Of a stretch of DNA of 64,000 bases, positions 4,822 to 49,585 are shown one piece after another. Every line of letters begins with the position of its first letter. Position 1 is the first letter of the stretch. The notes below the pieces were generated by a model that saw only the letters and a program-made list of their open reading frames with translations, had not been told where the DNA came from and made no database searches. Both the position numbers and the translations under genes were made by a program. This DNA is from Patescibacteria group bacterium (GTDB lineage Bacteria; Patescibacteriota; Patescibacteriia; PEXW01): the NCBI GenBank assembly GCA_041671325.1, contig JBAZBR010000001.1, forward strand, positions 153,771 to 217,770, in the 5' to 3' direction.

Positions 4822-5499
4822 ATGTCCGGCATACTTTACATTGTTGCCACGCCAATCGGGAATTTGTCAGACCTTTCGGTTCGGGCGAAAGAAGTTTTAG
4901 CGCATGTCAACGCGGTTTTGTCCGAAGACACGCGGGAGGCGGCAAAATTGTTGGCCCATATTGGCGCGGAAAAAACCGTCATCCGTTATGATGAGCATAC
5001 CCGTGGCGCAAGAGAAGACACGATTTTGAATAAATTAAAAAGCGGTGAAAGTTTAGCCTTGATTGCGGATAGGGGAACGCCGAATATTGCGGACCCAGGC
5101 GGTAGATTAGTGGAAAGGGTTTATAGAGAATGTCCGGGGGTAAAAGTCGTGCCCATACCCGGTCCTTCAGCCATGAGCGCGGCTTTGTCAGTCTGCGGTT
5201 TTCCTTTACAACAATTTTGCGGTTATGGCTTTTTGCCTTTGAAAAACAAAAGGCAAGCAATTTTAAGACAGATGGCTGAAGATCCTCGGCCAGCCGTATT
5301 TTTTGAATCACCGCATCGGATTGAAAAAGTCCTGACTTTTTTTATCGAAACTTGTCCGGACAGGGAAGTGTTTATCGGCCGGGAATTAACCAAGACTTTT
5401 GAACATCTTTATCGCGGCAAACCCGAAGAAGTTCTTAAAGCATTGCGAGCTGATGCAGTGAAGGGGGAGTTTGTGGTGGTTTTGGGACCGGGAAAGTAA
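4822..5499 (+). CDS. rsmI: 16S rRNA (cytidine1402-2'-O)-methyltransferase RsmI
   Basis: The N-terminus ILYIVATPIGNLSDLS is the tetrapyrrole-methylase-fold RsmI signature. Confidence 0.8.
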   Translation: MSGILYIVATPIGNLSDLSVRAKEVLAHVNAVLSEDTREAAKLLAHIGAEKTVIRYDEHTRGAREDTILNKLKSGESLALIADRGTPNIADPGGRLVERVYRECPGVKVVPIPGPSAMSAALSVCGFPLQQFCGYGFLPLKNKRQAILRQMAEDPRPAVFFESPHRIEKVLTFFIETCPDREVFIGRELTKTFEHLYRGKPEEVLKALRADAVKGEFVVVLGPGK

Positions 5500-5620
5500 A
5501 AAATGTTTGGTCTTGACCGCGCACCACTTTCTAAACAAATATCAATTTTATTAATTAATATGTTAGTTCGATAAATATCCTAATAATTCGAGTGTAGTTA
5601 TTATAGAAAGTGGTGCGGGG

Positions 5621-5649
5621 TTGACAGAATCATTAATCCATGATACTAT
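5621..5649 (+). promoter_or_regulatory. sigma70-like promoter (TTGACA, 17 nt spacer, TACTAT) upstream of the DGR target gene. An inverted repeat at 5508-5527 and 5601-5620 precedes it.
   Basis: The hexamers and spacing were read directly. The inverted repeat is ttgaccgcgcaccactttct / agaaagtggtgcgggg. Confidence 0.4.
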
Positions 5650-5850
5650 ACTTTGTTATTTAGTACCTTGAAAATCTACCCGCCCGCCACGGCTACGCCG
5701 TAGGCGTATCGGGCAGGCCTGCGAAACAACGTAGTCATAGCCAAAAGGTACTGATTATTTGGTACTTCCTGGCTACGACTACCAAGGTGGCGGTCCGCTG
5801 GCAATAAACCAAAATTGGCGAAACCCTAATTACAGAAAGGAAAAAACGCC

Positions 5851-6462
5851 ATGGATAAGCAAACAGGAAAACTGGTTGCTAGAATCTCCGAGAATCTTCC
5901 GGACATGGATCCTCGCCAGATGCAAATCTGGATCGACGATCCTAAAAGACTTCAAGTAGCTCTTGCAAACGCGCTCTGTCCGGTCAGAATGGTTGACGTT
6001 ACGACCAATGGTCGCGGCGGTGAGGAGTGGATTACCCACCTCGAAGAAAAACGCTACCGTGTTGGTGACTGGGCGAAGCAGCTACTCCGCAACAAGAAGT
6101 TTGTTGCCACGAACGGCAAAACCTACACTCTCGCCATCATCATGGGCGACGAGTTCAAGGATAATGAACGCACCAACAAGAACATCAGAGAAACTGCTCA
6201 CGCTCGTGGGTACCTTGATCCGTCTGTCGAACTTGGCCCCTACCTTCGCGAGATGTTCTCTGATGAAGATCTCAAGAAAATGGGCCTTTGGGCACTCATT
6301 CTCATGCATGAGCCCATTGCCGATTCGGTTGGTGACCTGTACATGCTTGGTGTCGACCGCTTCGATGTTGGTCGTTGGCTGAACACCTACCACGGTAACC
6401 CTGACGATGGGTGGAGTCGTGAGGTCGGGTTCATGTTCTTGGTTCCCGTAAGTAGCAATTAG
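5851..6462 (+). CDS. DGR target protein; its C-terminal 43 residues are the variable region (C-type-lectin-like VR, inferred)
   Basis: The 3' end of the gene is a 129-bp near-copy of the template repeat downstream, differing only at template adenines. There is no signal peptide or TM segment. Confidence 0.8.
   Translation: MDKQTGKLVARISENLPDMDPRQMQIWIDDPKRLQVALANALCPVRMVDVTTNGRGGEEWITHLEEKRYRVGDWAKQLLRNKKFVATNGKTYTLAIIMGDEFKDNERTNKNIRETAHARGYLDPSVELGPYLREMFSDEDLKKMGLWALILMHEPIADSVGDLYMLGVDRFDVGRWLNTYHGNPDDGWSREVGFMFLVPVSSN
6320..6448 (+). repeat. DGR variable region (VR)
   Basis: It aligns base-for-base with 6879-7007 and has 12 mismatches. Every mismatch has A in the TR copy and T, G or C in the VR copy. 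Confidence 0.9.
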
Positions 6463-6500
6463 TCCTTTGGACTTCTAACCTTTGGTCTTTTGGACCCTTG

Positions 6501-6532
6501 CCCGCCTCGACTCGACGTCTCGGCGAGGCGGG
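6501..6532 (+). promoter_or_regulatory. GC-rich hairpin downstream of VR (cccgcctcg ... cgaggcggg, 9-bp stem)
   Basis: It is a perfect inverted repeat 52 nt after the VR end. It resembles the hairpin/cruciform element required for DGR target recognition in characterised systems. Confidence 0.65.
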
Positions 6533-6878
6533 GCTTTAGCCCTTGGACAAACGTACAAACCCCGCATCTTGATTTCGTAACACACGAATGATGGATGTGG
6601 GGTTTATTTATTTCTGTTAAAATAAAGATGGTAGTAGGTGAATAGGTGGATGGCTACGGCTTTCCGCTACCGAATCCAGTGAACATATAACTCAGAATAT
6701 CTTCGGGTACGCCTTAAGATAGCGCAGTGTATGTGAACTTAAAAAAATGAAGCTACTTGGTATAGCGTCCTAGGGCATTTTATATGCCGGATTCGATTCA
6801 GCCTTGAGAGTATCCCGTTGCGACTTGCGCAGCGAGGCGAGTCAAGAGGCAGTGGCATGGGCGGTACGTTATACAAAT

Positions 6879-7007
6879 CCGATTCGGATGGTGACCTGAA
6901 CATGCTTGGTGTCAACCGCAACGATAATGGTCGTTGGCTGAACACCTACAACGGTAACCCTGACAATAGGTGGAATCGTGAGATCGGGTTCATGTTCTTG
7001 GTTCCCG
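6879..7007 (+). repeat. DGR template repeat (TR). It is non-coding, and the 6818..7069 ORF is an artefact of VR homology.
   Basis: Its codons corresponding to varied VR positions are AAC/AAT (N). It is followed by a small hairpin (ctctccc/gggagag) at 7024-7044. Confidence 0.9.
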
Positions 7008-7120
7008 CAACTCGCTTCGTCACTCTCCCTATTTATGGGGAGAGTTTTGTTTCCCCGTTAGAGGTGTAATATTAACAGTATCACTCTTGGACGACATTTT
7101 TTACTTAAACGTAAGAACCT

Positions 7121-7459
7121 CTAACGGGGTTTTGTCAGTTGGCCGTTCCACCCGCCCAACATTTTTCCGATTTCATCTATTTTCATGGACAACGCGATAT
7201 ACTTTTTGTTATCCAGCGATTTTGTTTCCCACAAGATCATTAAAAGTATTTTTAGCGTGTCTGTTTTTTGAATGGCGCGACGAACATAGGGCAATTTTTC
7301 AGTTCGTCCTAAAAAGCTTGCGGTAGCAATCGCTTCTATTGTTTCGATGAAGAGGGTATCAATGCGTTGACCTAATGTGTGCCTGTGTGTTTTTGGTATT
7401 GTTTGAAAATATCCGTACCAAAGCAAATACGCACTTTTTACCTTTTGCAGGACTGGCAA
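7121..7459 (-). CDS. avd: Avd-like accessory variability determinant (four-helix-bundle protein)
   Basis: It is about 112 aa with an IPKTHRH segment. Its C-terminal EIGKMLGGW segment parallels the Bordetella phage bAvd EVGRILGSW region. It lies between TR and RT on the opposite strand. Confidence 0.6.
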   Translation of the reverse strand: MPVLQKVKSAYLLWYGYFQTIPKTHRHTLGQRIDTLFIETIEAIATASFLGRTEKLPYVRRAIQKTDTLKILLMILWETKSLDNKKYIALSMKIDEIGKMLGGWNGQLTKPR

Positions 7460-8481
7460 AAGTCGGGGGGGGTAGGATTAAGAGTATGAGTAGGATGCAA
7501 CTCATTCATAGTTATCAGCATATCATTTCCATAGAAAATTTACTTGAGGCATGGCGAGAATTCTTGGTAGGAAAACGATCTCGTTTGGATGTGCAGGCAT
7601 TTGAGATTAACTTAATGAGTAATATCATATCGTTACATAATGATCTTGCTACCAAAAAGTATCAGCATTCGTCGTATGAAGCTTTTAATATTTCCGATCC
7701 AAAACCTCGCAACATTCATAAAGCCAAGGTGCGAGACAGGTTATTACATCACGCCCTATACCGTGTTTTGTATCCATTTTTTGATAAGACATTTGTTGCC
7801 GATTCGTATTCGTGCAGGATTGGGAAAGGGACACATAAAGCAATGGAGAGGTTTCGAGGATTCGCGAATAAGACATCTCGCAATAACACAAAAACATTGT
7901 GGGTGCTAAAGTGCGATGTCAAGAAATTTTTTGCATCCATTGACCAAACTTTGCTCATGGAAATTTTGAGTGAGTACATTCCGGATAACAATGTCAGATG
8001 GCTTATGGGTCAGATTATTGGCAGTTTTTATTCAACCGAAAAAGGCAAAGGGTTACCACTTGGCAACCTAACCTCGCAACTGTTCGTTAATATGTATATG
8101 AATGAATTTGATCAATTCGTAAAGCATAAACTTAAAGCCAAGTATTACATTCGCTATGCGGATGATTTTGTTTTCATGTCGGATAGTAAGGCGTGGTTAG
8201 AATCACTGGTTCCGTTGATTAGAGATTTTTTAGCAGTCAGACTTCGCCTCACCTTACATCCACAAAAATTATTTCTTAAAACCTTGGCTTCAGGCGTTGA
8301 CTTTCTGGGATGGGTGAATTTTCCCGATCATCGCGTGTTACGCACGACAGCCCGACGGCGGATGGAAAGTCGCATCATAGAGCATCCAACGAGTGAAACG
8401 ATCCAGTCTTATTTAGGCTTACTTAAACACGGGAATACTGAGAAAATTAAAGCACAAATGTTAGGTGGTCAATTTTTGTAG
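7375..8481 (+). CDS. DGR-type reverse transcriptase (the real start is probably ATG at 7486, MSRMQLIHSY)
   Basis: It has RT motifs including LGNLTSQ (the DGR-specific [ILV]GxxxSQ in place of QGxxxSP) and YADDFVF. The size of about 330 aa is typical of DGR RTs. An AGGA-like ribosome-binding site precedes 7486. Confidence 0.85.
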   Translation: MCACVFLVLFENIRTKANTHFLPFAGLAKVGGGRIKSMSRMQLIHSYQHIISIENLLEAWREFLVGKRSRLDVQAFEINLMSNIISLHNDLATKKYQHSSYEAFNISDPKPRNIHKAKVRDRLLHHALYRVLYPFFDKTFVADSYSCRIGKGTHKAMERFRGFANKTSRNNTKTLWVLKCDVKKFFASIDQTLLMEILSEYIPDNNVRWLMGQIIGSFYSTEKGKGLPLGNLTSQLFVNMYMNEFDQFVKHKLKAKYYIRYADDFVFMSDSKAWLESLVPLIRDFLAVRLRLTLHPQKLFLKTLASGVDFLGWVNFPDHRVLRTTARRRMESRIIEHPTSETIQSYLGLLKHGNTEKIKAQMLGGQFL

Positions 8482-9056: not shown

Positions 9057-9805
9057 TGGCATCTGAAGTTTCCTTAGCTGCAGAAAAAGTATTCCATCTT
9101 GGGCCTTTGCCCATAACCAACAGCCTTTTGGCTACTTGGGTGGTTATGGCGATTTTGGTTATTGGTGCCATTATTTTAAACCGAAAAATAAAGAAAGACC
9201 GGCCAGGTGGTTACCAAAATTTAGTGGAAATGATTTTTGAAGGCGCTTTGGGTTTGATGGACTCGGTCACACAAGATCGCAAGCAATCCATGAAATTTTT
9301 TCCTTTTGTTTTCACCTTTTTCATTTTAATAATTTGTGGCAACTGGTTTGGGCTATTGCCTGGTGTAGGAACCGTGGGCTTCCATGAAATCCATGATGGT
9401 AAGGAATTGTTCGTGCCTTTGTTAAGAGGCTCGGCCGCAGATTTGAATTTTACTTTGGCCTTAGCTGCCATTTCGGTAGTAGCTACCCAAATAATCGCTG
9501 TCGTCACTTTGGGTTTTTTCAAGCATGCAAAGAAATATATAAACTTTAAAAATCCGATTATGGGTTTTGTCGGCGCCTTAGAAGTCATTTCCGAATTCGC
9601 CAAAATCTTATCCTTTTCCTTCCGGTTATTCGGGAATATTTTTGCCGGGGAAGTCTTGTTGATTGTCATAGGATTAATAATTCCATATCTTGTACCAATC
9701 CCATTTTTATTCCTGGAATTATTTGTTGGCTTTATCCAGGCTTTTATTTTCTCGGTATTGACCTTAGTTTTCTTGAAAATTGCCACTACGGCCACCGAGC
9801 ATTAG
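9056..9805 (+). CDS. atpB: F0 ATP synthase subunit a
   Basis: It carries RLFGNIFAGE, the conserved Arg-containing helix. Confidence 0.9.
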   Translation: MASEVSLAAEKVFHLGPLPITNSLLATWVVMAILVIGAIILNRKIKKDRPGGYQNLVEMIFEGALGLMDSVTQDRKQSMKFFPFVFTFFILIICGNWFGLLPGVGTVGFHEIHDGKELFVPLLRGSAADLNFTLALAAISVVATQIIAVVTLGFFKHAKKYINFKNPIMGFVGALEVISEFAKILSFSFRLFGNIFAGEVLLIVIGLIIPYLVPIPFLFLELFVGFIQAFIFSVLTLVFLKIATTATEH

Positions 9806-9915
9806 TAATCAGGCCTTTGGATTTTAGTTATAAAATTCAAATGTTTCATTATTAATTAACAGCATTTTAACTTCGACTTTAAAAATCCAAAAAACAGTCG
9901 GAAGGAAAAATGTGA

Positions 9916-10155
<240 letters not shown>

Positions 10156-10217
10156 TTTTCAATTAGCCTTGTCTTGCTCCGCAACTGCGGGGCTGGACAG
10201 GCTAGTGGATAATTCTA

Positions 10218-10323
10218 TTGTCATTTCGAGCGGAGCAAAGCGAAGTCGAGAAATCTCGCCTTTACTAGACTAGATTCCTCCACTCCGTTCAGCCAAATGG
10301 CTGAACTTCGGTCGGAATGACAA
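10218..10323. repeat. Foldback MITE-like element, copy A (terminal inverted repeats TTGTCATTTCGAGCG / CGGTCGGAATGACAA)
   Basis: The terminal inverted repeats and internal hairpins (cgagaaatctcg; gttcagcc/ggctgaac) were read directly. It is related to copies at 13661 and 15606. Confidence 0.7.
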
Positions 10324-10354
10324 GTTTGTAAATTAACTAATAAATTACTTAAAT

Positions 10355-10858
10355 ATGGGAGATTTAATAAAACAATTCGGCATAGAACCCAGCCTCTTGA
10401 TTGCGCAAATAATTAATTTTGGCATTGTCCTGTTTGTCTTGTGGAAGTTTGCCTATAAACCAGTCCTAAAAGTATTGCGTGAAAGGCAAGCTAAAGTCAA
10501 AAAAAGTCTGGAAGATGCCAAAGCGGTGGAAATGAAACTGCAGGAAGCGGAAAAGATGAAACAGGAAAAGATTTTGGAAGCCAGGGGTGAAGCCGAGGCA
10601 ATTTTGGAGAATGCCTCTAAAGAAAGCGAAAGATACCGCCAACAGAGATTGGCGGAAGTCCAGTCCGAAATTGACGGCATGAAAGTCCATGCTCAGGCTG
10701 AAATTGTTGCCCAAAAAGCCCAAGCTTTGAATCAAGCCAAGGCCGAGATGGTGGATTTGGTAATTAGCGCAACCGGGAAAGTCGTGGGTAAATCCGGCAT
10801 TGAAAAAGTTAATAAAGCTTTAGTGGAAGAAGCGGTGGAGGAAACCAAGAATGTCTAA
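10355..10858 (+). CDS. atpF: F0 ATP synthase subunit b
   Basis: It has an N-terminal TM segment followed by a long charged coiled coil. Confidence 0.8.
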   Translation: MGDLIKQFGIEPSLLIAQIINFGIVLFVLWKFAYKPVLKVLRERQAKVKKSLEDAKAVEMKLQEAEKMKQEKILEARGEAEAILENASKESERYRQQRLAEVQSEIDGMKVHAQAEIVAQKAQALNQAKAEMVDLVISATGKVVGKSGIEKVNKALVEEAVEETKNV

Positions 10859-11258
10859 ATTTACAGTTAACCAATATGCGGCTGCTTATCAGGCTGCAGT
10901 CAAAGATAAAGCAGGGAAAGAGCGGGAAGTTATTGCCCATAATTTGGTAAAGACCTTGGCTTACCGCCGGCAAATAAAATTATTGCCAAGGATAATGACA
11001 GCTTTGGAAAGATTGATTGCGGAAGCTGGCGGGCCGATTGTGGTTAAAATTAAGGCCACCAGTAAACCAGATGAACAGACTTGCGGAATATTAAAACAAC
11101 AATTGGAAAAAGCCTTGGGCCGGGAAGTAAAAGTCCGCTGCCAAGTTGACCCGAAAATTTTGGCCGGCATCAAAATCCAGATAGGGGACCAATTAATCGA
11201 CAATTCCCTAGCTTCCAGGTTATTTAATTTAAAAAAACAACTTTTAACTAATTCCTAA
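10851..11258 (+). CDS. atpH: F1 ATP synthase subunit delta (OSCP), short form
   Basis: Its position between atpF and atpA and its C-terminal LAGIKIQIGDQLIDNSL segment support the call. Confidence 0.7.
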   Translation: MSKFTVNQYAAAYQAAVKDKAGKEREVIAHNLVKTLAYRRQIKLLPRIMTALERLIAEAGGPIVVKIKATSKPDEQTCGILKQQLEKALGREVKVRCQVDPKILAGIKIQIGDQLIDNSLASRLFNLKKQLLTNS

Positions 11259-11261
11259 ATT

Positions 11262-12764
11262 ATGCCCCACACTATCGTTGAAGTCCTTAAAACCCAACTC
11301 CAAAATTTTCAAGCCCAAGTCGCCAAAACCACAGTCGGCCATGTCATCGAAGTCGGCGATGGCATTGCCCGGGTTGAAGGCTTGTCCGATATCCGTTCAA
11401 GCGAAAAAGTAGTTTTTGCCTCTGGCGCCCAGGGCGTAGCTCAGAATTTGGAAGAAGACACGGTTGGCATCATGATCATGAAAGGTGCGGTAGAAGTTAA
11501 AGAGGGTGAAGAAGTTCGGGGTACGGGAGAAATACTGTCTGTTCCCGTGGGCCAGGAAATGGTTGGTCGGGTAGTAAACCCTTTGGGTGAAGCTATTGAT
11601 GGCAAGGGCGCTATTCAAACTAAAACGACTTATCCCGTAGAAAGGATCGCGCCCGGGGTAATTACCCGGGAATCAGTTAAACAGCCCTTACAAACCGGTA
11701 TAAAAGCTATTGATGCGCTTATCCCAATTGGCCGAGGTCAAAGAGAATTAATTATCGGTGATAGACAAACTGGCAAGACTGCGATCGTCATTGACACCAT
11801 TATCAATCAAAAAGGCACGGGTGTAACTTGCATTTATGTAGCCATTGGCCAAAAAGCCTCAAAGATCGCGCGTATTGTGGCAGAACTTGAAAAGCACGGA
11901 GCTATGGAGCACACTATCGTGGTTTTAGCCAACGCCTCAGATCCGGCAGCTTTATCTTTCCTGGCACCCTATGCTGGCTGTGCCATGGGTGAATATTTCA
12001 TGGATCAAGGCAAGGATGCTTTGGTAATTTATGATGACCTCTCCAAACACGCTTGGGCTTACCGCCAAATTTCCTTGCTTTTGCGCCGTCCCCCAGGCCG
12101 GGAAGCCTACCCAGGTGACATTTTTTACTTGCATTCCAGGTTGTTGGAACGCGCTGCGAAATTAAACAAGGATATGAAAGGCGGTAGCTTGACGGCTTTG
12201 CCGATTATTGAAACCCAAGCTGGGGATGTTTCGGCTTACATCCCGACTAACGTGATTTCCATTACTGATGGCCAAATTTATTTGGAATCAGATTTGTTTT
12301 ACCAAGGCCAAAGGCCGGCTTTGAACATCGGCTTGTCAGTATCCCGCGTAGGTTCAGCCGCGCAAAATAAAGCCATGAAAAAAGTAGCAGGCAAATTAAG
12401 GTTAGACATGGCCCAATACCGGGAATTAGCGGCTTTTGCCCAATTCGGTTCAGATTTAGACGCAGCCACTAAAGCGCAGTTGGAAAGAGGCAAGCGGACA
12501 GCAGAATTATTGAAGCAGGGCTTACTTAAGCCAATACCCGTTACCCAACAAATTTCAGTTTTGTATGCAGTCACCCAAGGTTTGCTAGATGAAGTTGCCG
12601 TTGAAGATATCCAGGCCTGGGAAAAAGCTTTTTTACACGCGCTTTCAACCCAGCAAAACAAGTTTTTGGAAAAATTGGCCAAATCGGCCGAGTTGACTCC
12701 GGAAATCGAGAAAGAACTCAAGGAGATAATCGTGAATTTTAACGCTTTAAGGAAAAATAAATAA
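11262..12764 (+). CDS. atpA: F1 ATP synthase subunit alpha
   Basis: It has the Walker A motif GDRQTGKTA and full alpha-subunit length. Confidence 0.95.
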
Positions 12765-15605: not shown

Positions 15606-15743
15606 TTGTCACCCTGAGCCTGAGTATTATGAAGGCGAAGGGTCTCCACAAGTGTAAATAATATTTATAAAGATTCTCCCGCCTGCCTCGCCAGTGCGAG
15701 TACGGTGGGCAGGTCCCCCGCAGTCGCGGGGTCAGAATGACAA
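15606..15743. repeat. Foldback MITE-like element, copy C. It contains the inner palindrome cccgcctgcc...gtacggtgggcagg, which is also inserted in a pseudo-tRNA at 39116-39152.
   Basis: The terminal inverted repeats are TTGTCACCCTGAGCC / GGGGTCAGAATGACAA. It begins 6 nt after the atpD stop. Confidence 0.7.
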
Positions 15744-34444: not shown

Positions 34445-34688
34445 ACCCCGCACAACTCACTACGTTCGTTTGCGGGGCAGGGAGCAACGGTTTTGTCTCC
34501 CTTCGGGAGATGTCCCGTAGGGACATAAACCTTGAAAAATAATTAGTTTTAAACCCGAGCCGCCCTAGCTCAGTGGTAGAGCAACTGTTTTGTAAACAGT
34601 AGGTCGTCAGTTCGACTCTGACGGGCGGCTCCAAACCCGGCGGGCAGAAACCGTAGGTCGTCCCGCGGCCGCGGGACCGCTGGCTCCA
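34445..34688 (+). pseudogene. degenerate tRNA-Thr(TGT)-like gene with hairpin insertions in the D-loop, anticodon loop and T-loop. The intact tRNA-Thr(TGT) is nested inside its anticodon-loop insertion.
   Basis: The 5' half gccagcgtagctcagctggta...gagcaacggttttgt and the 3' half aaaccgtaggtcgtc[ccgcggccgcgggac]cgctggctcca pair as acceptor and anticodon stems. Confidence 0.55.
34559..34633 (+). tRNA. tRNA-Thr (anticodon TGT)
   Basis: The cloverleaf was folded by hand, with anticodon loop ttTGTaa. A CCA end is encoded. Confidence 0.85.
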
Positions 34689-34992: not shown

Positions 34993-35083
34993 GGGGGAAT
35001 AGTTCAGCGGTAGAACAGCGGTCTCCCCGCCTTCCACGCCCGACGTACCAGACGCACTCTGGCGGGGACGGGTCGGAGTACGG
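34993..35083 (+). pseudogene. degenerate tRNA 5' fragment (tRNA-Trp-like) with a GC-rich hairpin insertion after the anticodon
   Basis: gggggaatagttcagcggtagaacagcggtctcc parallels the intact tRNA-Trp 5' half. It is followed by the insert ccgcc...ggcgg and has no T-arm or acceptor 3' strand. Confidence 0.5.
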
Positions 35084-39070: not shown

Positions 39071-39270
39071 TGGAGCCAGCGGTCCCGCGGCCGCGGGACG
39101 ACCTCTGCTTTACCTGCCCACCGTACTTCGCTTGGCGAAGGCAGGCGGGCGAAAGCATTGCTCTTCCGGGGAGTTCGGATCCCGTAAGCGGGATAGCCTC
39201 ACTCCCGTCTTGGCTCTCGCAAACTCAAGCAGTTGAGTTTGCTCGTCGCCTCGACCCAACTGAGCTAGAT
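39071..39270 (-). pseudogene. degenerate tRNA-Thr(CGT)-like copy immediately downstream (minus strand) of the intact gene. It has a 95-nt D-loop insertion, a 37-nt anticodon-loop insertion and the same palindromic T-arm and tail as the 34445-34688 pseudo-tRNA.
   Basis: The minus-strand read is ctagctcagttgg[ins]gagcaatgctttcg[cccgcctgccttcgccaagcgaagtacggtgggcagg]taaagcagaggtcgtcccgcggccgcgggaccgctggctcca. The 34-nt tail is identical to 34655-34688. Confidence 0.55.
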
Positions 39271-49337: not shown

Positions 49338-49585
49338 TGTCCTGCTTTTCAGTATGATTTTATCAGCTTCAAGACTTTTTTCAAGAGCAAATGCGTTAGC
49401 AGAATAGACAATTTTCGAGCCTAAACCTCACTTCGTGAGGCATGGTACCAAACCCCTTAGTAGATACTGAACCCCGTGTTCAGCGACTCTACTAAGGGTC
49501 ACATTCCGAAAGGGATGTGGGTGGCCGAAAGGTCGCTAGCTGGCGCGGGGTTTTGTGTTTTTACTCTCTTATCAAATCATAAACT

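Follow-up and report, generated by a model that had tools for sequence, protein, structure and literature searches.

The window (the whole stretch of DNA analysed here, 64,000 nucleotides) carries between positions 5621 and 8481 a target gene with a C-terminal variable repeat (VR), a template repeat (TR), a gene for an accessory variability determinant (avd), and a gene for a reverse transcriptase (RT). All four components of the complete diversity-generating retroelement (DGR) proposed in the initial annotation are therefore present, and each is borne out by its own independent test (Table 1). [quoted passage not shown] Of the DGRs in CPR genomes, 90% have this architecture, TR-(avd)-RT (Wu et al. 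2018, NAR 46:11, PMC5758913). B3 DGRs of CPR/DPANN genomes (for CPR/DPANN DGRs see Paul et al. 2017, Nat Microbiol 2:17045, as cited in PMC5758913) resemble the window element in how target, TR, inverted avd, and RT are ordered and oriented, in their host lineage (Patescibacteria), and in having a small target without recognisable domains and with a C-terminal VR; there is no difference in gene architecture. We conclude that positions 5621–8481 very probably contain a chromosomal DGR (target-TR-(avd)-RT) of the B3 type known from CPR, the host being a Kerfeldbacteria-like Patescibacterium. The gene architecture is already known; what we did not find described elsewhere is a conserved, structured leader before the TR.

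Table 1 Features of the DGR locus, in coordinates of the window.
Feature	Position	Strand	Basis or remark
Target promoter-like site (TTGACA, 17 nt, TG-extended TACTAT)	5621–5649	+	Consensus scan; match only
Target 5′ UTR, conserved; stem 5731–5742/5771–5782	5729–5850	+	Comparison with L001
Target (variable-protein) gene, 203 aa	5851–6462	+	ORF carrying the VR
VR	6320–6448	+	Target codons 157–200; 12 A-specific mismatches to TR
IMH-like VR end (CCCGTAAGTAGC)	6445–6456	+	Clade pattern; putative role by analogy with Bordetella phage
CTTGG/CTTTG-type short repeats and mini-palindromes (e.g. 6461–6473, 6484–6496)	6461–6545	+	Kept in relatives
Intrinsic-terminator-like hairpin with T-tract at the end of the target transcript	6559–6613	+	Stem 6559–6568/6594–6603, then TTTATTTATTT
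Extended −10 box (TGTTAAAAT) of the TR-containing RNA	6615–6623	+	TGnTAnnnT consensus
Structured non-coding leader, ~250 nt	6629–6878	+	nhmmer, RNAalifold, covariance model R1
Leader helices H1, H2	6630–6639/6669–6677; 6647–6654/6659–6666	+	Predicted fold
Leader helices H3, H4	6684–6692/6726–6733; 6698–6708/6711–6721	+	Predicted fold
Leader helices H5, H6	6760–6771/6863–6874; 6775–6777/6785–6787	+	Predicted fold
Leader helix H7	6801–6809/6842–6850	+	Predicted fold
Near-invariant leader segment AAAUGAAG-CUACUUGGU	6745–6761	+	First 8 nt pair with 7015–7022; candidate primer strand
TR	6879–7007	+	Ungapped match to VR; non-coding in context
IMH*-like TR end (CCCGCAACTCGC) and tail strand CTTCGTCA	7004–7022	+	Tail pairs with leader
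Stem-loop 7023–7028/7039–7044, then TTTTGTTT	7023–7053	+	Terminator scan; 5 of 6 stem pairs covary
Window-specific insertion, 13-bp inverted repeat (7053–7065/7117–7129)	7053–7129		Absent from L002, L003, L004
avd, 112 aa, TTG start	7121–7459	−	Pfam bAvd PF22296
DGR RT, 331 aa, ATG at 7486	7486–8481	+	RVT_1 77 bits; motifs; PDB match

The initial annotation described the cassette as richer in G+C than its flanks and suggested horizontal acquisition. Only the target gene and the TR are richer (G+C 0.51–0.53), whereas avd and the RT gene, at 0.38–0.40, equal the flanks, and a related Kerfeldbacteria genome (locus L001) has the target gene at the same syntenic site. Because the rise is limited to target and TR and the target is syntenic in L001, the suggestion of horizontal acquisition fails.

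VR and TR differ only at TR adenines

The VR and TR align without gaps over 129 nt with 12 mismatches (at VR positions 6329, 6340, 6355, 6361, 6362, 6367, 6368, 6391, 6406, 6409, 6416, and 6424). In 12 of 12 an A in the TR faces T, G, or C in the VR, so that our recount agrees with the restriction to TR adenines reported initially; with adenines at 30 of the 129 TR positions, the chance of all 12 mismatches falling on A is 3.3e-9. A repeat search of the window recovered the pair independently, and no second VR-like copy was found on either strand of the window. Read in the VR frame, the TR adenines occupy codon positions 1 (14 adenines) and 2 (16) and never position 3, and nine TR codons are AAC or AAT. 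The statement that the changed codons are AAC/AAT in the TR is correct for seven of ten but not for the remaining three, which are GAT, AGG, and ATC.

Directly after 6448/7007 the mismatches are no longer A-specific (T/C, G/C, A/C), which places the 3′ boundary of the repeat pair where it had been annotated. Across the clade the VR finishes CGCAAGTA(G) and the TR finishes CGCAACTC, the window having CCCGTAAGTAGC and CCCGCAACTCGC, respectively. By analogy with the IMH and IMH* of the Bordetella phage element (PMC3240598, PMC5758913), we infer an IMH-like role for the CCCGTAAGTAGC end. Nothing here clearly corresponds to the G+C-rich cruciform of the phage element; CTTGG-type repeats follow the VR instead. 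Nearly every related locus has such repeats after its VR (CCTTTG in 23 of 50, CCTTGG in 21 of 50), and in the window the array is broken by a G+C-rich hairpin (6501–6532) that is absent from relatives.

The diversified protein has a predicted C-type-lectin-like fold

A helical N-terminal module of ~45 aa followed by a C-type-lectin-like domain of ~155 aa is predicted for the target protein. Its sequence matches no Pfam family and no PDB chain, and none of the 11 members of the target family tested has a Pfam-A match. When modelled, the structure resembles C-type-lectin and formylglycine-generating-enzyme (FGE) folds, including that of the DGR variable protein TvpA, in line with the fold anticipated for the C-terminus in the initial annotation. 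Residues ~46–200 of the target are predicted to have the same fold as Mtd, TvpA (2y3c), and FGE-type CLec domains, with the VR in the last strands and loops and with a conserved ...W.R..GF.F... scaffold between whose residues the hypervariable positions lie. The target differs from them in having no sequence relation, in its very small ~155-aa domain, and in the absence of an export signal, there being neither a signal peptide nor a membrane segment. The VR sits C-terminally in the ORF, inside a fold predicted to tolerate variation, and the element diversifies the last ~43 codons of what is, on the structure model, a C-type-lectin-like protein of 203 aa.

The TTGACA and the downstream box of the target promoter-like site are kept in the syntenic locus L001, to which the target 5′ UTR is ~90% identical, exceeding the conservation of the surrounding DNA. 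At the downstream end, relatives have hairpins of other sequence and T-tracts at the same place after the target.

RT and Avd belong to DGR families

The RT contains the motifs LGNLTSQ (8059–8079) and YADD (8155–8166), both as annotated, and its >496 metagenomic relatives align from residues 1–5; a longer ORF that begins at 7375 and overlaps avd is without homologous support. Its best match among solved structures is 8ub7_A (152 bits, E 2e-43), which we take to be the Bordetella phage bRT (it has 328 aa, like brt in AY029185, and shows IGSLTSQ in the alignment), and the next PDB matches, group II and ‘retron-type’ RTs, reach ≤63 bits. Among the 147 phage records that tblastn returned for the RT are those of five Bordetella phages, ANMV-1, and crAss-like phages. 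The best matches and the motifs support placing the RT in the DGR clade, as had been called from the motifs.

That the locus is instead a group II intron or retron RT beside a duplicated gene end is so improbable as to be negligible: the best NCBIfam model for the RT is group_II_RT_mat, retron and Drt models also match while no DGR-RT model does, and many database records label such RTs ‘retron-type’, but the group_II_RT_mat score is far under the model cut-off (TIGR04416, 136.9 bits vs 300), the best retron score is likewise under its own (retron_St85_RT, 56.6 bits vs 235), the 331-aa protein has no maturase or endonuclease extension, Rfam scans found no group II intron or retron RNA family, bRT leads the solved matches by 90 bits, avd adjoins the RT gene, and the VR/TR mismatches are strictly A-specific.

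The 112-aa ORF between TR and RT had been recognised as Avd-like, an identification confirmed by Pfam (bAvd PF22296, 49.6 bits against a cut-off of 40, model positions 5–104 of 107), but its inversion onto the minus strand had been missed. The NCBIfam model DivGenRetAVD (NF033474) scores 68.8 bits, below its cut-off of 80. Both the position and the strand of avd are kept in all related loci (>60 loci for position). The insertion that adjoins avd bears a weak, below-threshold resemblance to c4-2 RNA and is probably not part of the DGR.

The element is apparently still active

Comparison of the window with a second assembly of the same genome (ENA contig k141_710309, locus L090) revealed 4 differences in 8,612 bp, all four of them in the VR at TR-adenine positions (6409, 6415, 6416, and 6424). 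VR polymorphism confined to TR-A sites, which had been set out as a check on the DGR, is thus seen between two assemblies of one genome. Since the two differ only at these sites, the element has been active recently, and it is apparently active still, although the pair could represent two co-assembled strains rather than one evolving population.

The VR/TR pattern might alternatively record past activity of a cassette that no longer works. Decay does occur in this clade: only 4 of 17 VR/TR mismatches are at TR-A in locus L004, and leader, TR, avd, and RT have been lost from the syntenic Kerfeldbacteria locus L001, where the target persists. The window itself has three small insertions inside or beside the DGR RNA, but these either fall in the loop of a hairpin or lie beyond the conserved RNA. 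Moreover, the RT and avd ORFs are intact and retain conserved motifs, none of the mismatches across the 129 nt of VR and TR is at a TR base other than A, and the only differences between the two assemblies in 8.6 kb are at four TR-A sites of the VR. We consider a fossil element very improbable.

A conserved, structured leader precedes the TR

Searches with nhmmer found the leader directly 5′ of the TR in >50 loci and across unrelated target families. RNAalifold gave 52 pairs, 45 of them with compensatory changes, and in the test against slid and shuffled controls 56 of 66 pairs of the leader have such changes. In that test 93.8% of the cells are paired vs 40–55% in slid controls, the covariation score is 0.539 vs 0.10–0.18, and shuffles reached the observed pairing in 0 of 500 trials; because the loci are interrelated (their RTs are 62–71% identical to that of the window), the shuffle controls overstate the significance. 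A covariance model of the leader core built without the window (R1) matches 6749–6853 of the window with 62.6 bits (E 5e-11), and a 31-nt insertion peculiar to the window falls in the H7 loop. The consensus TGnTAnnnT of an extended −10 box is present in 36 of 50 loci and in 33 of those ends 5–7 nt upstream of the base at which pairing in the leader begins. In Rfam 15 the leader matches no family, and we found no description of the structured leader or of its long-range pairing in the accessible DGR literature. The leader is a covariation-supported RNA family new to Rfam 15.

The near-invariant segment of the leader pairs with the tail that follows the TR. Taken alone, this long-range helix is 90.3% paired vs 48–57% in slid controls, with 20 double-change cells vs 3–10, a comparison in which it is favoured because it was first spotted by eye on the consensus; compensatory changes are visible by eye in loci L017, L062, L032, and L036. 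In 43 of 50 loci the VR homology begins 0–4 nt after the 3′ strand of H5, and it ends a few nt before the tail strand. The stem-loop that follows is, as judged from its sequence, terminator-like and/or a candidate for Avd binding. Handa et al. (bioRxiv 10.1101/2023.10.23.563531) predicted Avd-binding stem-loops just 3′ of the TR for 207 of 278 DGRs. In relatives the T-tract of this stem-loop, read on the opposite strand, forms the final codons of avd.

The predicted RNA compared with known DGR RNAs

To our knowledge, the Bordetella phage element is the only DGR studied biochemically. That of phage BPP-1 is arranged mtd-avd-TR-brt, and the bRT-Avd-RNA particle is available as the PDB 8ub7 series (Handa et al., bioRxiv 10.1101/2023.10.23.563531). 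The window element has in common with it the RT family (E 2e-43; [I/L]GxLTSQ and Y[A/M]DD motifs), Avd, A-specific mutagenesis, and a putatively IMH-like difference between the VR and TR ends, as well as, on prediction, a helix immediately before the TR, a template whose 3′ end lies in a duplex, and a stem-loop directly after the TR. Unlike in BPP-1, avd is inverted and downstream of the TR, there is no ~140-nt spacer between TR and RT, the structured RNA is 5′ of the TR, in a topology that seems circularly permuted, and has an additional 5′ domain (H1–H4), and the strand that pairs at the template 3′ end lies upstream and has its partner just beyond the part homologous to the VR.

A structured RNA adjoining a DGR TR is also known as Rfam RF03022 (Phage_DGR), which we take to be the RT-10 motif of Weinberg et al. 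2017. RNAs of this type have been proposed to prime or assist reverse transcription (PMC5737381). RF03022 lies between TR and RT, whereas the window leader lies before the TR. The RF03022 model found no match in the window at its gathering score (50 bits), none at E<=10 in 5450–7200, and nothing at E<=1 in four CPR loci; the positive control, BPP-1, scored 104.7 bits. Model R1 in turn did not detect the spacers of BPP-1, BalMu-1, VP585, or ANMV-1. As each model misses the RNAs of the other group, homology of the leader RNA and the phage DGR RNA is not demonstrated, its sole support being topology and one 13-nt resemblance.

A circularly permuted DGR RNA as a tentative model

From 5′ to 3′, the predicted RNA consists of a primer strand, a stop strand, a short stem-loop, an A-rich single strand, a stem-loop, another stop strand, the TR, and a final stem-loop, an arrangement that would amount to a circular permutation of the Bordetella phage DGR RNA. 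We suggest that the leader belongs to a DGR RNA whose parts have been rearranged, the elements for protein binding and priming now preceding the template. A separate RNA of ~420 nt (leader, TR, tail, and stem-loop, roughly 6629–7050) would be made from its own promoter and would offer its folded leader and 3′ stem-loop as binding sites for the RT and a pentameric Avd. The leader:tail duplex would be the counterpart of the template:primer duplex in the Bordetella phage element, so that the cDNA would be cis-primed from the leader, starting just 3′ of the TR. The RT would copy the TR, misincorporating opposite A, until halted by the 12-bp helix H5, a putative physical stop comparable to the ‘cPRT Stop’ duplex of the phage, and the cDNA would replace the VR from its 3′ (IMH-like) end. 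The priming and stopping roles of the leader:tail duplex and of H5 are proposed by analogy with the phage element. As a possibility raised by the sequences, the invariant ACUUGGU segment of the leader and the CTTGG repeats after the VR may take part in recognition of the target site. Extended to the class, the model holds that the B3 DGRs dominant in CPR use a circularly permuted RNA in which RT/Avd-binding, primer, and stop elements are all in a ~250-nt 5′ leader, with cis-priming from upstream and the TR looped between two helices; we regard this reading as possible rather than established.

Alternatively, the RNA might be organised as in the Bordetella phage, with a functional spacer downstream of the TR (the stem-loop and antisense avd, in a transcript that reads through to RT) and a leader that is only promoter-proximal, stabilising, or regulatory, for example in TR transcription. 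No promoter-like site for the RT was found in our scan and only 26 nt separate the avd and RT starts, so that read-through from the TR would supply the RT transcript. Only a short U-tract follows the stem-loop (UUUUG in most loci), as would suit read-through. Stem-loops 3′ of the TR and upstream/downstream duplexes have been described in DGRs including those of CPR, in an analysis spanning 40 nt upstream and 100 nt downstream (Handa et al., 10.1101/2023.10.23.563531). Against such a spacer, however, the synonymous sites of avd are essentially unconstrained over codons 1–108, suppression being seen only in the last 3–4 codons, which indicates that no conserved RNA element is embedded in avd, while in the leader most pairs show compensatory changes. 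Furthermore, H5 and the leader:tail helix bracket the TR within a few nt, which is hard to reconcile with a mere regulatory 5′ UTR, and the leader is retained over unrelated target families. We consider a phage-like organisation rather unlikely.

Implications for CPR DGRs

The window element is one more well-documented, apparently active example of a known DGR class, and its target is one of a family (at least 2,291 clusters) of small, predicted C-type-lectin-like proteins without export signals. The Bordetella phage DGR requires a downstream spacer RNA, for which the architecture of 90% of CPR DGRs leaves no space, and the covarying leader offers a concrete, testable answer to where the functions of that spacer went. 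A defined RNA of ~420 nt and two small proteins (331 and 112 aa) would suit reconstitution, and the sequence and structure signature of the leader could sharpen both the detection of DGRs and the calling of TR boundaries in CPR metagenomes.

The element is a complete and recently active diversity-generating retroelement

Direct alignment of the variable repeat (VR, 6320-6448) with the template repeat (TR, 6879-7007) gave 129 gap-free nt with 12 differences, each of which has A in the downstream copy (TR) and T, G or C in the upstream copy (VR). The recount agrees with the repeat coordinates and mismatch number of the initial annotation, and tabulation by TR base places 12 of 12 mismatches on A, an outcome with a chance probability of ~3e-9 given the 30 A in TR. 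The pair was recovered independently by a repeat search of the window, and neither strand of the window holds a further VR when any base is accepted opposite TR adenines. Right after 6448/7007 the VR/TR differences are T/C, G/C and A/C and are no longer A-specific; the A-specific zone thus stops abruptly on its 3' side. Read in the frame of the 203-aa target ORF, the TR adenines occupy codon position 1 (14) or position 2 (16) and never position 3. The assignment of these adenines to AAC/AAT codons in the initial annotation holds for 7 of the 10 changed codons, the remaining three being GAT, AGG and ATC.

The reverse transcriptase (RT) gene starts with the ATG at 7486 and encodes 331 aa that match Pfam RVT_1. 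Among all PDB sequences the top match was 8ub7_A (328 aa; E 2e-43, 152 bits), aligned over residues 12-311 with LGNLTSQ facing IGSLTSQ and YADD facing YMDD; the next-best matches were group II intron and 'retron-type' RTs, at 63 bits or less. We take 8ub7 to be the Bordetella phage RT (bRT), on the grounds that brt in AY029185 has the same length of 328 aa and that the motifs agree. A tblastn search of 50,697 phage records with the RT returned 147 records at 33-38% identity, including five Bordetella phages, crAss-like phages, Faecalibacterium phages and the archaeal virus ANMV-1, in which the gene adjoining the match is annotated 'DGR target protein'. No DGR-RT model was matched in an NCBIfam scan, where the best model was a group II RT-maturase (136.9 bits, cut-off 300). 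The 112-aa ORF between TR and RT matched Pfam bAvd at 49.6 bits (cut-off 40) over almost the whole profile and NCBIfam DivGenRetAVD at 68.8 bits, under the cut-off of 80; a search of PDB sequences did not match solved Avd. On the strength of the Pfam and NCBIfam profiles this ORF is an Avd, as first proposed, with the addition that it lies on the minus strand, an orientation previously left unstated. The genes avd and RT diverge from start codons only 26 nt apart (7460-7485), so that each promoter must lie within the coding region of the other gene, or RT is transcribed by read-through from the TR RNA. A promoter scan found no promoter-like site.

The database protein nearest to the target (P0001, 99% identity) differs from it only by G187R, S189H and V192I, all within VR. 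It is encoded on a 618-kb contig (ENA ERZ27249449 k141_710309) that, over the 8,612 bp compared (MetRS to atpF), shows exactly four base differences from the window, at 6409, 6415, 6416 and 6424, all of them VR positions facing a TR adenine. As read from these two assemblies, identical in every other respect, the four differences would mark recent mutagenic retrohoming, and their clustering in the 3' third of VR is compatible with integration proceeding from the 3' end. Taken together, the recount, the RT and Avd matches and the four TR-A differences between assemblies bear out the original proposal of a complete DGR with target, VR, TR, Avd and RT, and indicate that it has been recently active.

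The target belongs to a large family of unnamed proteins

Neither as a single sequence nor as a profile did the 203-aa target find a match in Pfam, NCBIfam, a PDB phmmer search or a PDB profile search, and none of ten diverse family members matched Pfam. A word-indexed search identified 25 relatives, all unnamed proteins from Patescibacteria MAGs, and a target HMM run against 1.84 billion cluster representatives retrieved 2,291 at E<=1e-3 and 219 at E<=1e-30. Almost all of these are 150-260 aa long, with variable N-termini and a conserved C-terminal domain of ~155 aa. In the family alignment an invariant scaffold (...G.L..LGV.R...GRWL....G.PD..W.R..GF.FLVP) is interspersed with hypervariable columns. 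The target has neither a signal peptide nor a hydrophobic segment, in agreement with the earlier reading of its sequence.

We note that target residues 1-45 (5851-5985) form a helical module, MDKQTGKL(I/V)ARI(S/A)ENLPDM...MQ.WID(D/N)PK, common to P0019 and P0022-P0025, proteins that are quite different over the rest of their length. The N-terminal module of other family members is another one, and by sequence comparison the shared module appears to be an exchangeable domain for docking or targeting. The target 5' UTR (5729-5850, plus strand) is ~90% identical to that of the syntenic locus L001, a degree of conservation above that of an ordinary UTR, and includes a 12-bp stem at 5731-5742/5771-5782.

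Related elements share one architecture and are typical of the Candidate Phyla Radiation

We collected related loci with the target protein (nine loci) and with the RT (80 of more than 496, at 62-71% identity). All loci that include the upstream DNA begin with the target gene and its VR; ~300-450 nt without coding sequence separate these from TR, which is followed by avd in reverse orientation and then by RT. The VR/TR mismatches fall overwhelmingly on TR-A. Architecture B3, 'TR-(avd)-RT', accounts for 90% of the Candidate Phyla Radiation (CPR) set of Wu et al. 2018 and is almost never found elsewhere (PMC5758913). The element in the window is exactly of this architecture, the inverted avd is already known, and the element is ordinary for the CPR class. 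A locus in a Ca. Microgenomatus auricola MAG (L004, 6376-6513 vs 6880-7017) has the same architecture with TR-A at only 4 of 17 VR/TR mismatches, its repeat pair apparently being decayed or inactive.

The window organism is close to Candidatus Kerfeldbacteria. The locus syntenic to the window, L001 in a Ca. Kerfeldbacteria MAG (PEXW01000002), shows amino acid identities of 78% for MetRS, 88% for RsmI, 93% for AtpB and 100% for AtpE. L001 has the target gene at the same site and has lost the leader, TR, avd and RT. Specifically, at its positions 6001-7392 the target is kept together with its IMH-like end (IMH being the VR-end element of the Bordetella phage DGR), the CTTGG repeats, the terminator and the -10 box, and ~13 nt survive at the start of the leader; the remainder of the leader, TR, avd and RT have given way to a 134-aa minus-strand ORF that, judged by eye, looks like a CheY-type receiver. 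L001 is an orphaned DGR target.

The initial annotation had described the whole cassette as G+C-rich and had suggested horizontal acquisition. Only the target gene and TR are richer (0.51-0.53) than the flanks (~0.40-0.45), avd and RT being at 0.38-0.40, and the target occupies the same syntenic site in the Kerfeldbacteria MAG; neither G+C content nor synteny supports a recent transfer. A phage origin was likewise rejected: a 16-nt leader motif gave at least 120 matches in IMG/VR, among which, of those listed, L179 alone is a real DGR of this type and the others are chance, and the window element is flanked by housekeeping genes. The L179 contig carries two target-like ORFs followed by leader, TR, avd and RT (9361-12247).

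A leader RNA with covarying helices precedes TR

Comparison of the VR-to-avd interval in the window and three relatives showed that the ~250 nt directly 5' of TR are as conserved as the genes. A leader HMM matched immediately 5' of TR in more than 50 loci, many with a target protein unrelated to that of the window. Since the leader is present whatever the target protein, it is a part of the retroelement and not of the target gene. Searched against 1.02 Mb of unrelated viral sequence, the HMM matched L179 alone.

RNAalifold predicted 52 pairs on a 50-sequence alignment, 45 of them with compensatory double changes. Counting these pairs together with two added helices, standard pairs occupy 93.8% of cells, compared with 40-55% when partners are slid by 1-3 columns, and the covariation score is 0.539 against 0.10-0.18; the observed values were reached in 0 of 500 shuffles. 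A covariance model of the leader core (R1), built from 43 relatives with the window left out, matches the window at 6749-6853 (62.6 bits, E 5e-11) and places the extra 29-31 nt of the window within the terminal loop of helix H7, by this model a harmless position. R1 detects the window and L179, and has no match in BPP-1 (the Bordetella phage reference), BalMu-1, VP585, ANMV-1 or the orphan L001. No Rfam 15 family reaches its gathering score in the leader region, and none appears in 5450-7200 at E<=10; the model RF03022 (Phage_DGR) reaches 104.7 bits with the spacer of BPP-1 and has no match in four CPR loci. We found no description of the leader in the literature searched, which does not fully exclude an earlier one.

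Features of the element and its RNA in the window.
Feature	Position	Strand	Sequence or remark
Target ORF	5851-6462		
VR	6320-6448		
IMH-like sequence at VR end			CGCAAGTAG
Hairpin and T-tract ending the target transcript	6559-6613	+	hairpins of other sequence at the equivalent place in relatives
Extended -10 box	6615-6623	+	TGTTAAAAT; consensus TGnTAnnnT
Leader	~6629-6878	+	5' domain H1-H4 at 6630-6733
Almost invariant single-stranded leader segment	6745-6761	+	AAAUGAAG-CUACUUGGU
H5	6760-6771 with 6863-6874		12 bp; encloses short hairpin H6, A-rich single strand and hairpin H7
TR	6879-7007		
Tail strand	7015-7022		CUUCAUUU (window: CTTCGTCA); a few nt 3' of TR; complementary to leader AAAUGAAG
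Stem-loop	7023-7044	+	6-10 bp, then UUUUG(UUU); covariation in 5 of 6 core pairs; terminator-like in a simple scan
avd	7459 down to 7121	-	ORF coordinates
RT	7486-8481	+	

The -10 consensus occurs in 36 of 50 loci, 33 of which have the end of the box 5-7 nt ahead of the point where pairing in the leader begins, and the 3' strand of H5 ends 0-4 nt before the VR-homologous start of TR in 43 of 50. The long-range helix between leader and tail, picked by eye on the consensus in a way that favours it over the slid control, is 90.3% paired (48-57% after sliding) and contains 20 double-change cells where slid partners give 3-10, with clear compensatory pairs in four relatives (L017, L062, L032 and L036). 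The minimum-free-energy fold of the window RNA alone (z = -3.95) recovers H2, H3/H4, H6, H7 and the 3' stem-loop, and lacks H5 and the long-range helix.

Repeats and hairpins around the element

Across the clade VR ends in CGCAAGTA(G) and TR in CGCAACTC; in the window the ends are CCCGTAAGTAGC and CCCGCAACTCGC, respectively. The difference is consistent and, as far as sequence can tell, resembles that between IMH and its TR-end counterpart IMH*. BPP-1 has a G+C-rich cruciform after VR, whereas in the CPR loci this place is taken by an array of 7-10-nt CTTGG/CTTTG-type repeats and mini-palindromes. The array spans 70-90 nt after VR, between VR end and target terminator, in the window (6461-6545; examples at 6461-6473 and 6484-6496) and ~50 loci, and roughly 20 loci have GGTCT-CTTT-GGACC-type hairpins ~25 nt downstream. 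The repeat array and the invariant leader segment have an ACUUGG core in common.

The window also contains G+C-rich insertions that form hairpins (CCGCC...GGCGG type or a 13-bp inverted repeat) and are missing at matching positions in relatives. One each lies in the target 5' UTR (5676-5720), the target 3' UTR (6501-6532), the H7 loop (6811-6841) and between the stem-loop and avd (7053-7129); others are at 15679, 35024-35068 and 39114. Similar hairpins occur in three related loci (L027, L028 and L041), and the insertions may form a family of miniature mobile or REP-like repeats. Elsewhere, two identical copies of an 18-nt perfect palindrome (GTCCCGCGGCCGCGGGAC) are found close to tRNA genes at 34660-34677 and 39082-39099, and a full-length Rfam LOOT RNA (RF03000; 84.1 bits, gathering score 46.4), unrelated to the DGR, lies at 49418-49537 on the plus strand.

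The leader may be part of a rearranged DGR RNA

The RNA required for cDNA synthesis in the Bordetella phage element is made up of a short upstream piece, TR and a ~140-nt downstream spacer. The spacer begins, immediately 3' of TR, with a stem-loop that binds Avd. This is followed by a primer strand, which anneals to the TR 3' end and has the priming adenosine as its last nucleotide, and by a strand whose pairing with the upstream piece creates the 'cPRT Stop' duplex; the cDNA terminates just before this duplex. Further on come a short stem-loop with adenosines after it, the single-stranded 'thumb ring' and a stem-loop that binds RT (Handa et al., bioRxiv 10.1101/2023.10.23.563531). In the CPR elements, by contrast, only ~45 nt separate TR from the avd stop, beyond which the sequence is unconstrained. 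If the phage RNA were cut after the Avd-binding stem-loop, ahead of the primer strand, and its original ends were joined, its elements would stand in the same relative order as those of the CPR RNA: primer-like strand, H5 5' strand, H6, A-rich single strand, H7, H5 3' strand, TR and stem-loop. The stretch left unpaired 3' of H6 (consensus GAAUACGAUACAA; window GGAUUCGAUUCAG, 6789-6801) resembles phage Sp79-91 (GAACACGUUACAC) at the equivalent place. Because R1 detects no classical spacer, common descent of leader and phage spacer is not demonstrated.

We consider it possible, if somewhat short of an even chance, that CPR elements of this clade run on such a rearranged DGR RNA. Beyond the folding of the RNA, each step is one that we infer. 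In the reading that we prefer, an RNA of ~420 nt would be made from its own promoter, and RT and Avd would assemble on the leader and the 3' stem-loop; the leader:tail duplex would set a leader nucleotide as cis-primer beside the 3' end of the template, and H5 would halt the polymerase at the TR 5' end.

The main rival is that the leader is merely regulatory and that read-through into antisense avd and RT supplies the working RNA, a reading kept in play by the short U-tract after the stem-loop and by the 26-nt spacing of the avd and RT starts. Against it, TR is bracketed exactly by the leader and tail helices, and the synonymous sites of avd are unconstrained. Specifically, synonymous variation is suppressed only in the last 3-4 codons, the final ones of which in relatives (K-Q-N, AAACAAAAC) are the antisense of the stem-loop's U-tract; codons 1-108 show nearly the full synonymous range, which argues that antisense avd holds no conserved RNA element, and a functional spacer within it was rejected on these grounds.

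A DGR as such is not unusual for this host group. What is notable is a covariation-supported leader RNA common to a large CPR clade, and the proposal that these elements may use a rearranged DGR RNA is testable.
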